Assembly: GCF_054482525.1 (NCBI RefSeq)
Contig: NZ_CM137006.1
Reading direction: 5' to 3' (one strand)
DNA length: 64,000 nucleotides
Shown here in pieces: positions 60,722 to 64,000 of this stretch (within the stretch, counting starts at the first letter, position 1; each line of letters begins with the position of its first letter). Both the position numbers and the translations under genes were made by a program. The notes under the pieces were generated by a model. The model was not told where the DNA came from, did no database searches, and saw only the letters and a program-made list of their open reading frames with translations.

Positions 60722-62014
60722 TTACCTGTTTTCCCATAATCTCAGCATCGCTTTGTGCTCGTCTGTCAGCACAATCTGCGGGCGTCTGGCTCGAATATAG
60801 CTAATCGCTTCATTAACGGTTTTACAATGTCCGTAACATAACAGCCATGCCGCCACTACCAGCGCACTGCGCGATAATCCCAACGCGCAATGGACCAGAA
60901 CGCTGCCTTGCTCTTCGCGTAATGTTTCCAGCATTGCCACGGCCTGTCGGAGCTCCCCCTCTTCCGGAACCACCAGATCCAGCATCGGTACACAAAAATA
61001 GAGTTGATCTTTTGTGGCTCGTCCGCGAGGGAATTCAAAGGTGACGTCCAGAACCGCATTCTGTGCCGGAATATGTTGTGGAAACGCCCCTAAATAAACA
61101 CCAGCAGTAATTTTGCTCACCGGCTCAAGGCGAAGACAAAACCAACGCATAGACAGCCACATCCCGATGCGCCAGGGCAATGTCAGCCAGTAAACGGCGG
61201 GCGGGAGTTTCCCCTGACTATCTTTACCTGTTGTTATCGCGCCAAGCCCACCGTACCCACGGCCAATAATGAGTAGCGATAATACTGGCCAACATAACCA
61301 GACTGACCACCAGAACTGAAGCATTATCATTAGCTCCATCAACACAATGCACGAGCACGCGCCTGCGACATATGGCAGTGCTATTTTGATTCGACGTTGA
61401 TCAGGTTCCTGATAATTCCAACGACGGTCGACGGGCACCATCCAGTCAATTAACATACCTACCGCCAGCCCTGTGATGACATCAATAAAATGATGCTGCC
61501 AGGTCGTCAGCGTCGAAATGGCGATGAATAAAAACCATCCGCCGCAGACTTTACGCCACCTCACAGCCAGATGCTGACGAAAGTGACGCCAAAGTAGCCA
61601 GCAGAGAATAATATGCAGCGAAGGAGACTGGTTATAAGGCAGATCAAACAATTCAAGTTGCGAAAATAACCATCCTGTCACCCCACTCACTTCAGGACGG
61701 ATAAAACTAAACTTCAGCGGGTAGAGAAAAAAACCGCAGCAGGCCATTACCGTTGCCAGAATAAGCCGGTGGACAAGTCGGCGCTGTTCGAATGTCGAGC
61801 TACAAACGAACAGCGAAAATCCATATAAAAGATCCAGACTCCAGTAAGGAACAATAGTCCAGGGAAGAAAAGGGATCGCCGTTTCCCAACCGAATACCTG
61901 ACTGGGGATATCATGGTTGTTAAGATCCTGAGTCGCGGTGAACTGATTAAGAAACCCATAGGTGAAGAAGAAAAAGGGGGCCAGCAACAATAACCAGCCA
62001 GCTCCTTGTAGCAA
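60722..62014 (-). CDS. ynbD: Inner-membrane protein with C-terminal dual-specificity phosphatase domain
   Basis: Track ORF runs to 62113; the start was chosen at an internal TTG to match about 430 aa. N-terminal TM region and C-terminal CX5R phosphatase motif ([10 protein letters not shown]). Start uncertain. Confidence 0.7.
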
Positions 62015-62027
62015 TACGTTCCGGCGT

Positions 62028-63785
62028 TCAGTTATCACGACGCACCGCCATCGAAACCGTAAAAATACCCCACTCATCAATCCGTTGGGTGCATTTATCA
62101 AATCCGGCATCATGCACGAGCGAATCCATCTCCCCTTGAGAACGCACGCGCATTACCCACGGTTTACCATCTTTATGACTGGTTAACACCCCGGCAATCA
62201 GCTCCAGTTGTGGGTGCCACGGCTGCCCGGTGTAGATGAGAATGCCACCCGGATCGATGGCATTGGCAAGACCTGCGAGTGAGTTTTTTACCTGCTCATT
62301 TTCGGGAAAAAGCTCATACAGGCCAGAGACAATCGCCAGCGTAGGCCGCGGAGTTAACGTGCTGAGTTCTGCAGGATTAAACGCATCGCCCTGTTCAAAA
62401 CGCGCCCGCCCAGACATTCCCCGTTGGGCAATCATCTCTTGCCCTTGTGCAACATTTACCTCACTGTAATCACGTAACAAAATTTCGCTTATGGCGGGCT
62501 CGTTTGCCAGCGCATCCAGTACATAGCGCCCATGCCCTGTGGCAATGTCAACCACGCGGACGGCTAAACCTTTGGCGTGGAGATCGGCAACGGCTTGTTT
62601 AATCAGCATTTGTAAATGGGTTTTGCGCTGGCGAATACCGCGCCAGCCAACACTGTTCAGGTAGATTTTGTCGATAAAGCGCCCGAATGCGTTACTGCCT
62701 TGCGGTTGATTTTGATAGACATAATCCAGCGAACTGCCTGAATCAAAGCCGGTGCTCATTCCGAGATGCAGGCCCGCAGAGTGCGTCCCGAACAATTTCA
62801 TCGCCTTTCGCATAAATCGATACGCCAAATCTACCGGCGATAACGGCACGGGTCCACCAGAAAGGAGCCGCCATCGATCCGCTGATGGTCCTGTGCTGTC
62901 TTCATGCTGATAATCAAATTTTTGCGACTTGTTAGCATATAAGCGACTAATAAAGCTTTGCATTTTTTCAAATGCCTGCGCCCTGTTCTCTTCGCCCAAC
63001 GTGTCGTGATAAAAGCCTGGCAGCAGATGCAGCTCTTTGAGAGGACTACGTAAATGCTGATAAAAATCAATTTGCGGTTGGCGATGCACCACATAGTCAT
63101 CGCCTGATATCAGAAGTTGCGTGGGGAGCGTAATCGCCGCCGCATCGCTAACAATACGTTCAGACGTTTTATAGAGATCGAGCAAGATATTGACGGCAAT
63201 CGCCCTTGTGATCAGCGGATCATTATTGAAACTCGCCACCCGTTGCCGATCGTGGGTCAAATAGCGTCCTTTCACATAGGAATTAATAAAAAACAGACCA
63301 CGCAGACGATGCCATAACGTCAGCCCAGGACGTGCCAGCGGCACATACAATTTAACTTTAAAGGCCGGAGAAGCCAGCACCAGCCCGCGAATTGCAGGCG
63401 CATAATCATGAACCCATGTGGCAACCAGCACTGCGCCGACGCTTTGCGCGATCACAACCACCTCTTCCAGTCCAACCTGGCTGTCGCTGGCAGCAAAACG
63501 GACAAATTCATCGACATCCCGCACTGAACGCGCAAGAGATGGGCTATAACCACGCGGCCCCGAACTTTTTCCATGCCCTCGGGCATCCCAGGCATAAAAA
63601 GCAGTATCTGGCATCGCCATTTCATCAACGATATGTTGTAGACGACCAGAATGTTCATGACCGCGATGAAATAAGACGATGACCTTTTTCGCCCCGGGCT
63701 GTAAAGCGGGCCAGTGCCGATAAAACAACGCTGTATTATCACTGGTGGTAAAAAAATGTTCCCCAGGGATGCGTGAATTTTCCAT
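62028..63785 (-). CDS. ynbC: Fused alpha/beta-hydrolase and methyltransferase-like protein
   Basis: 585 aa; hydrolase nucleophile motif (AQSVG) in the N-terminal half and a SAM-methyltransferase-like C-terminal half. Confidence 0.8.
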
Positions 63786-63800
63786 TTTCTCTATTTTCCT

Positions 63801-64000
63801 TCAGTAACAGCAGTAGCGAATAAAATAAAAAAATACCGGAGCGGTGAAAATTAATGAGTCAATCCTGTCAAGGAGTCCGTCATGTCCTGGTAATAGTTTT
63901 CCACTATCTTTAACACCAATATCTCGTTTGATGGCTGACATCACTACATCGCCGCAAAAACCACTAATACCAATTAACAAACCCGTTAATAATGCCTGTA
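63801..64000 (-). CDS. ynbB: CDP-diglyceride synthetase-like protein, C-terminal part (5' end outside window)
   Basis: Minus-strand frame translates to ...[28 protein letters not shown], containing the CdsA family signature. Confidence 0.7.

Follow-up and report, generated by a model that had tools for sequence, protein, structure and literature searches.

The ynbBCD genes of Escherichia coli as part of a trimmed six-gene cassette with a proposed role in phospholipid head-group chemistry

The genes ynbB, ynbC and ynbD lie at one end of a 64,000-nucleotide stretch of DNA (contig NZ_CM137006.1 of RefSeq assembly GCF_054482525.1, hereafter the window) and make up the last three quarters of the ynbABCD operon, which in Escherichia coli is a trimmed copy of a six-gene proteobacterial cassette that has lost an acyltransferase and a small membrane protein. 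We propose, with a probability of roughly 0.55, that this cassette builds and then uses a special phospholipid derived from CDP-diacylglycerol and that the trimmed E. coli copy is probably only partly functional. The window is part of an E. coli chromosome, its positions 60000-64000 matching strain PCN033 at 100% identity and most other E. coli at 96-98%, and its minus strand carries three consecutive open reading frames (ORFs) that the RefSeq annotation of PCN033 names ynbD, ynbC and ynbB, at the positions given for three genes in a preliminary description made from the letters alone. In the PCN033 annotation ynbA lies just beyond the window edge, where that description had expected it, and is followed by ydbD. 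The locus is already known and annotated, ynbABCD being among the few E. coli lipid-enzyme operons without an assigned product, and the papers searched gave no functional account of ynbABCD as a unit, of PF12147 (Methyltransf_20) or of this combination of enzyme families. Added here are the six-gene context, the reduced state of the E. coli copy, a strain-specific change in YnbB and structural leads for YnbD and YnbA.

The six-gene cassette and its E. coli copy

The hydrolase-methyltransferase fusion encoded by ynbC was searched for in one genome per species and is encoded in at least 576 species, the family comprising about 400 clusters at 50% identity (E below 1e-30). The neighbourhoods of the 80 best loci, from Enterobacterales, Pseudomonas, many Betaproteobacteria, Bradyrhizobium, an Acidobacteria genome bin and Motilimonas, were surveyed by calling ORFs and searching these with the E. 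coli proteins. Of the 80 loci, 79 have ynbA beside ynbC and 70 have ynbD after ynbC, and where ynbD is missing the locus in several cases runs into a contig end; a CdsA-like gene and the gene of a PlsC-type acyltransferase usually accompany them. Two further genes are conserved, one for a PlsC-type acyltransferase of about 206-219 amino acids (PF01553; the best NCBIfam matches are to Aas-like and LPAAT domains) and one for a small membrane protein of about 135-155 amino acids that belongs to no Pfam family and occurs in Pseudomonas-type and Citrobacter-type versions homologous to each other (hhalign probability 98.3%). All-against-all clustering of the ORFs within +/-10 kb returned six families only, and otherwise just recurrent antisense shadow ORFs; no conserved gene for a head-group precursor synthase, a glycosyltransferase, a regulator or an inositol-phosphate synthase was found in these neighbourhoods.

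The cassette occurs in three layouts: ynbA-ynbC-ynbD-small protein-acyltransferase-ynbB in Pseudomonas and Betaproteobacteria, ynbA-ynbB-acyltransferase-ynbC-ynbD-small protein in Citrobacter, Hafnia, Budvicia, Iodobacter and others, and ynbA-ynbC-ynbD-small protein, with no ynbB, in Morganellaceae. In addition, a YnbA-like domain is naturally fused to the hydrolase-methyltransferase in two unrelated proteins (P0243 and P0269). A pathway for a membrane lipid or its head group had already been suggested from the domain set, and the conserved gene context strengthens this reading. Since the cassette parallels the route from lysophosphatidate to phosphatidylglycerol and adds extra enzymes to it, we read it as a self-contained pathway.

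The preliminary description spoke of a compact operon; the E. coli genes are a reduced version of the cassette and no complete unit. The homology blocks of ynbB and ynbC are 75 nt apart in E. coli, compared with 697 nt in Citrobacter, where the interval contains the acyltransferase gene of roughly 660 nt (blastn), and the small membrane protein gene is missing from the 53-nt gap (60669-60721) that separates ynbD from the convergent azoR. A tblastn search of the window found no trace of either protein. The ratio of non-synonymous to synonymous substitution rates (dN/dS), a simple Nei-Gojobori count over three E. coli strains that is indicative only, is 0.18-0.41 for ynbB, 0.23-0.26 for ynbC and 0.16-0.26 for ynbD, against 0.01-0.02 for hrpA and 0.03-0.04 for azoR in the flanks; in Citrobacter species that have the full cassette, the corresponding values are 0.02-0.05, 0.02-0.06 and 0.08-0.14. 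Constraint on the E. coli genes is about ten times weaker than on hrpA and azoR by this indicative measure, pointing to relaxed selection. The ynbBCD stretch is present in 4766 of 5426 complete E. coli genomes, compared with 5418 for the azoR side, so that the ynb region is missing from about 12% of them; some others have internal deletions, and about 84% retain intact reading frames. In one genome without the stretch (L083, NZ_CM173836.1, 6001-6114) azoR stands next to pdxI at a distance of about 110 nt, which indicates that ynbABCD and ydbD were lost together. Given the loss of both genes, the relaxed selection and the absence of the locus from about 12% of strains, we consider the pathway in E. 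coli probably only partly functional. The complete cassettes of Citrobacter, Hafnia, Pseudomonas and Variovorax are a better object for lipidomics than the reduced E. coli copy.

Erosion of the cassette is also seen in other Enterobacteriaceae. Citrobacter sp. Cu233 carries two copies in one genome (L005 and L014), the second of which looks degenerate, with a ynbA of 143 amino acids, a truncated acyltransferase and a ynbD split in two ORFs. In Phytobacter massiliensis (L011, 8443-11761) ynbB abuts ynbC without an acyltransferase and no ynbD was detected, and Enterobacter sp. BIGb0383 (L013) has ynbA-ynbC-ynbD and the small protein only. A distant homologue, P0245, lies on a 3.3-kb contig that offers no informative neighbourhood.

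Enzymes of the cassette and the proposed pathway

All of the domain assignments of the preliminary description, which had itself named a profile search as the way to overturn them, hold against Pfam. YnbB enters the window only with its 3' end (63801-64000, minus strand), the last 66 codons including the stop, the rest of the gene lying past the window. The 65-residue fragment encoded there matches CTP_transf_1 (PF01148) with 92.9 bits and the full-length PCN033 protein with 225.8 bits, against a cut-off of 24, in keeping with the partial CdsA-like gene described earlier. Against the CdsA equivalog PRK11624 in NCBIfam it scores 108.4 bits, in the C-terminal half only and under the cut-off of 385, which makes it a paralogue of CdsA, consistent with published work (PMC7018664). 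K-12 YnbB synthesizes CDP-diacylglycerol slowly, increases the amount of the glycolipid MPIase when overproduced, is no substitute for CdsA in bulk phospholipid synthesis and, given CDP-diacylglycerol from yeast Tam41, rescues a cdsA knockout (PMC6362211, PMC7018664). A ynbB knockout has no phenotype, growth and MPIase included (PMC6362211), and ynbB is induced by cold together with cdsA (PMC11413397). The function of the operon, initially given as unknown, is thus known in part, in that YnbB is published as a low-rate CDP-diacylglycerol synthase aiding MPIase synthesis.

In the window strain, the C-terminal signature of PF01148, K-R-x4-K-D-...-H-G-G-x2-D-R-x-D, is not intact. The YnbB sequence around it is K-R-D-I-G-V-K-D-...-P-G-H-[G]-G-L-L-D-R-I-D, and the bracketed Gly is Asp in the window, encoded by GAC at 63879-63881 on the minus strand; the corresponding codon of K-12 and SCU-106 is GGC (Gly), and Gly-Gly is found in 63 of 63 orthologues of other genera. 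The change is lineage-specific and rare, the exact 71-mer that carries it occurring in 4 of 4281 E. coli genomes. Its place in the catalytic signature suggests that it may impair YnbB and that the strain may lack YnbB activity.

YnbA matches CDP-OH_P_transf (PF01066) with 38.5 bits, above the cut-off of 22. In NCBIfam it comes closest to archaetidylinositol phosphate (AIP) synthase (NF040950, 73.5 bits) and phosphatidylinositol phosphate (PIP) synthase (NF045883, 47 bits), both far under the respective cut-offs of 180 and 170, and its nearest solved structure is the mycobacterial PIP synthase 6h53 (E 1.7e-8). By sequence, these bacterial and archaeal users of inositol phosphate are the nearest characterised relatives of YnbA, which is no member of their equivalogs. 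In the PIP/AIP pathways a phosphorylated alcohol is attached and then dephosphorylated, and such a scheme would explain why a phosphatase is always adjacent to YnbA. YnbA differs from these synthases in that no inositol-phosphate synthase gene is conserved nearby and in that the canonical motif D-x2-D-G-x2-A-R-x8-G-x3-D-x3-D is replaced by N-x2-D-G-x2-A-R-x8-G-x3-N-x3-D. Of 81 aligned sequences, that of E. coli among them, 79-80 have Asn in place of the first and third signature Asp and the rest have gaps, whereas 6h53 has Asp at both positions. To our knowledge, no characterised CDP-alcohol transferase has this Asn variant, and its invariance gives a specific biochemical prediction that can be tested. 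The ynbA promoter is activated by BglJ-RcsB (PMC3950696), and ynbA, ynbC and ynbD are in the BglJ/RcsB regulons, their transcripts rising jointly with plasma treatment (bioRxiv 10.1101/2025.05.08.652849).

YnbD (60722-62038, minus strand; 438 amino acids from a GTG at 62038) was initially described as a membrane-anchored phosphatase, a description that is right for the phosphatase and too narrow for the membrane part, which is itself a PAP2-type catalytic domain. The C-terminal dual-specificity phosphatase (DSP) domain (60728-61099) matches DSPc (PF00782) with 97.6 bits and has the H-C-x5-R-S P-loop in H-C-A-L-G-L-S-R-S (60866-60892) and the general-acid Asp in P-M-L-D-L-V (60971-60988); D354, C384, R390 and S391 are invariant in 38 orthologues. 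The membrane domain (61124-62038, residues 1-305, eight transmembrane helices) scores 19.4 bits against PAP2_3 (PF14378), under the gathering score of 27 for the window protein, and many orthologues have a precomputed PF14378 match. It contains the PAP2 motifs C2 (S-x-H, in S-P-S-L-H, 61613-61627) and C3 (H-x3-D, in W-Q-H-H-F-I-D, 61481-61501) and the Arg-Pro of C1 (in F-I-R-P, 61691-61705), the C1 lysine not being conserved and the spacing altered to K-x4-R-P. In the same 38 orthologues P115 of the Arg-Pro pair, S140, H142, H182, H183 and D186 are invariant. An AlphaFold2 model built with these orthologues (predicted local distance difference test score, pLDDT, 93.2; predicted template modelling score, pTM, 0.89) displays eight long helices in the membrane, followed by an amphipathic linker and, at the C-terminus, an alpha/beta domain. 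Since the motifs are conserved and the predicted fold agrees, we consider the PAP2_3 call confirmed despite the sub-threshold score.

Structurally, the membrane domain of YnbD is nearest to sphingomyelin and inositol-phosphorylceramide (IPC) synthases, and PgpB-type phosphatases are absent from its best 60 matches. With the PAP2-type phosphotransferases SMSr and Aur1 (IPC synthase) it has in common the fold and a His-His-Asp active site on the predicted exoplasmic face, at only 10-14% identity, and it retains the C1 Arg-Pro. We propose that YnbD works like a sphingomyelin/IPC-type head-group phosphotransferase, and membership of that family is not claimed. E. coli, as far as we know, makes no ceramide, and therefore any YnbD acceptor must differ from those of SMSr and Aur1. 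Lys and Arg residues of YnbD are grouped on alternate loops, the "outside" loops having only K109 and R114 of the C1-like motif, and by the positive-inside rule this distribution would place the PAP2-type site and its three motifs in the periplasm and the Cys-phosphatase in the cytoplasm. A protein with two such faces, a cytoplasmic Cys-phosphatase and a periplasmic sphingomyelin-synthase-like domain, is a second prediction that can be tested. YnbD has been listed as the fourth E. coli PAP2 protein without an assigned function, and its knockout has no growth phenotype (PMC7413402); its overexpression gives a glycogen phenotype (PMC2853380), and ynbD is listed in a fitness screen of uropathogenic E. 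coli in systemic infection (PMC3855560).

YnbC (62028-63785, minus strand; 585 amino acids from an ATG at 63785) is a fusion of an alpha/beta-hydrolase and an S-adenosylmethionine (SAM)-dependent methyltransferase, as the preliminary description had it. The hydrolase domain (62988-63692, residues 32-266) is monoacylglycerol-lipase/lysophospholipase-like and matches Hydrolase_4 (PF12146) with 231 bits; its nearest solved relatives are the Mycobacterium tuberculosis and human monoglyceride lipases (E about 4e-15). It has the Ser-Asp-His catalytic triad and an H-G oxyanion motif (H-R-G-H-E-H-S-G-R, 63642-63668), the nucleophile pentapeptide being A-x-S-x-G (A-Q-S115-V-G, 63435-63449) and not G-x-S-x-G. 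The Ser115 motif and His260, in G-F-Y-H-D-T (63000-63017), are kept in most of 25 diverse homologues, and the domain is predicted to act as a lipase. The methyltransferase domain (62040-62963, residues 275-582) matches PF12147 with 503 bits and has the motif I of class I SAM-dependent methyltransferases at 62523-62549 and a Rossmann-like fold. Catalytic residues are conserved in both domains. Polyphosphate build-up has been reported after a transposon insertion in ynbC in one strain background (PMC2435150).

From these enzymes a pathway of five steps can be proposed. YnbB would convert phosphatidic acid and CTP to CDP-diacylglycerol, a step with experimental support from K-12 YnbB only, and CdsA could supply the same intermediate without YnbB, as it presumably does in the Morganellaceae that lack ynbB. 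YnbA would then move the phosphatidyl group onto a phosphorylated alcohol, and the cytoplasmic DSP domain of YnbD would strip the terminal phosphate. For this third step there is a precedent in mitochondrial PTPMT1, which has the dual-specificity-phosphatase fold in common with the C-terminal domain of YnbD and dephosphorylates phosphatidylglycerophosphate (PGP). In a fourth step, also cytoplasmic, the lipase domain of YnbC might deacylate the lipid and its methyltransferase domain might methylate the lipid or the head group; in full cassettes YnbC and the acyltransferase could act as a deacylation/reacylation pair. Finally, the periplasm-facing domain of YnbD would act at the outer surface of the inner membrane, where it would transfer or cleave the phospho-head group, as its fold, motifs and topology suggest.

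The order of enzyme types in the full cassette (acyltransferase PF01553, PF01148, PF01066 and a terminal phosphatase) is that of the housekeeping PlsC-CdsA-PgsA-PgpA/B/C route of E. coli, but the two differ in several respects. YnbB is far under the CdsA equivalog cut-off (108 vs 385 bits) and cannot rescue a cdsA knockout by itself (PMC6362211). The active-site motif of YnbA is the N...N variant, and the phosphatase is a DSP fold fused to a sphingomyelin-synthase-like domain in YnbD, which does not complement pgpABC (PMC7413402), whereas the lipase-methyltransferase and the small membrane protein have no counterpart at all.

A more specific version of this pathway, which we put forward tentatively and hold to be possible rather than probable, is that the cassette makes an undescribed proteobacterial membrane lipid by means of a new subclass of CDP-alcohol transferases with the motif N-x2-D-G...G-x3-N-x3-D and maybe with a phosphate-bearing acceptor, that this lipid is methylated and re-acylated in the cytoplasm, and that YnbD uses it as a periplasmic head-group donor. 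In one concrete form of this idea YnbA would be the dedicated synthase, still missing, of the diacylglycerol-pyrophosphate-linked precursors of MPIase-type glycolipids. If the cassette does make a new head-group donor lipid, it would represent a new route of envelope modification in many proteobacteria.

Alternative explanations

Several observations weigh against the proposed pathway. Its second to fifth steps are drawn from homology, fold, topology and gene context. Two of the four signature Asp of YnbA are replaced, and its chemistry may consequently depart from that of canonical CDP-alcohol transferases. The closest structural neighbours of the YnbC methyltransferase domain offer no clue to its substrate. 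The P-loop of YnbD, H-C-A-L-G-L-S-R-S, seems nearer to those of protein dual-specificity phosphatases than to the basic P-loops of PTEN and PTPMT1. The dN/dS values come from three E. coli strains, and such ratios are generally inflated when taken within a species. Finally, plasmid-borne ynbD failed to rescue pgpA pgpC pgpB(ts) mutants or mutants in C55-PP phosphatases (PMC7413402), so that PGP is probably not the substrate of YnbD, or else the protein was inactive.

Another explanation, which we regard as unlikely, is that the operon is a dedicated branch for MPIase, a glycolipid linked through diacylglycerol pyrophosphate (DAG-PP). YnbB would then provide enzyme-bound CDP-diacylglycerol, YnbA with its less acidic N...N site would couple a sugar-1-phosphate to it, for instance N-acetylglucosamine 1-phosphate (GlcNAc-1-P) to give GlcNAc-PP-DAG, the PAP2-type domain of YnbD would handle DAG-pyrophosphate in the periplasm, and YnbC would trim or modify the product. 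PAP2 enzymes such as PgpB, YbjG and LpxT classically act on lipid pyrophosphates, and the invariant motif variant of YnbA would suit an anionic phosphate nucleophile. The window ynbB is the orthologue of the K-12 gene whose overproduction raises MPIase and which, with Tam41, rescues a cdsA knockout (PMC6362211, PMC7018664), and its cold induction alongside cdsA (PMC11413397) also fits. MPIase is reported to be essential, and the cited MPIase literature names no biosynthetic enzymes for it other than CdsA and YnbB. However, MPIase is unaffected in the ynbB knockout, and GlcNAc-PP-DAG is reportedly formed by CdsA alone (PMC6362211). The work on MPIase by the Nishiyama laboratory covers ynbB alone, with ynbA, ynbC and ynbD unmentioned (PMC6362211), and concerns a YnbB without the Gly-to-Asp change of the window. 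Moreover, ynbB is the member that the cassette can do without, as in Morganellaceae, whose loci consist of ynbA-ynbC-ynbD and the small membrane protein; such a branch has no evident use for the acyltransferase, the lipase and the methyltransferase, no methyl group having been described in MPIase; and the cassette is found in Pseudomonas and Betaproteobacteria, while MPIase has been described in E. coli.

The E. coli genes, especially those of the window strain, might also be a silenced and decaying relic that has no pathway function and persists only through slow decay, which we think improbable. Such a state would agree with the loss of two of the six cassette genes, with dN/dS values about ten times those of the neighbours, with the missing loci and internal deletions, with a promoter that requires BglJ-RcsB (PMC3950696), with ynbB and ynbD knockouts that show no growth phenotype (PMC6362211, PMC7413402) and with the Asp in the YnbB signature of the window strain. 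On the other hand, dN/dS is well under 1 (0.16-0.41) and the frames are intact in the large majority of genomes, the catalytic residues of YnbC and YnbD are all intact in the window, K-12 YnbB is active and cold-induced (PMC7018664, PMC11413397), expression of the operon is regulated, and ynbD is on the fitness list for systemic infection (PMC3855560).

Finally, that YnbD is a membrane-tethered signalling protein phosphatase whose lipid-enzyme neighbours are coincidental is very improbable, because this lipid-gene context, with ynbD beside ynbA and ynbC, is conserved across phyla, the phosphatase is part of one protein with a PAP2-type lipid-enzyme domain that has invariant catalytic His, His and Asp, and no kinase or signalling partner is conserved nearby.

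Gene boundaries and neighbouring features

The preliminary description reported an overlap between the end of ynbC and the start of ynbD, which depends on the start codon chosen for ynbD. From the GTG at 62038, giving 438 amino acids, the two genes overlap by 11 nt (62028-62038, minus strand), between the ynbC stop and the ynbD GTG; the PCN033 RefSeq record begins ynbD at the TTG at 62014, giving 430 amino acids and a gap of 13 nt to ynbC. The GTG is the start used in the K-12 and SCU-106 RefSeq records, and 15 orthologues begin at a conserved M-x-T-E-R-R stretch that matches it. The N-termini of the orthologues, together with these two annotations, make 62038 the better-supported start, and we accept the overlap on that account, with the caveat on the start codon. 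The longest possible ynbD ORF (ATG at 62113, 463 amino acids, 86-nt overlap) was rejected, its extension being missing in 14 of 15 aligned orthologues. In the PCN033 RefSeq record ynbB has 285 amino acids (L001, 9802-10698) and ynbD 430, compared with 298 and 438 in K-12; the PCN033 sequence permits the longer forms of both, and the records of this one species are thus annotated inconsistently.

ynbB and ynbC share a reading frame and are separated by a spacer of 15 nt (63786-63800, minus strand). An E. coli protein of 889 amino acids (P0001) is a YnbB-YnbC fusion (corresponding window interval 63786-63803), and with the shared frame and the short spacer its length fits read-through of the ynbB stop. 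A scan of 59800-64000 for promoters and terminators gave fewer sites than shuffled sequence, and no internal promoter or terminator can be claimed in that interval.

Outside the operon, ydbD is annotated as a DUF2773 bactofilin, and five of the matches to the region are on complete-genome records labelled as plasmids. Between ydcF and hrpA, PCN033 carries an IS200/IS605 tnpA (L001, 1299-1757), which corresponds to about 55298-55756 of the window; the intergenic DNA of K-12 and SCU-106 there measures only about 270 nt.

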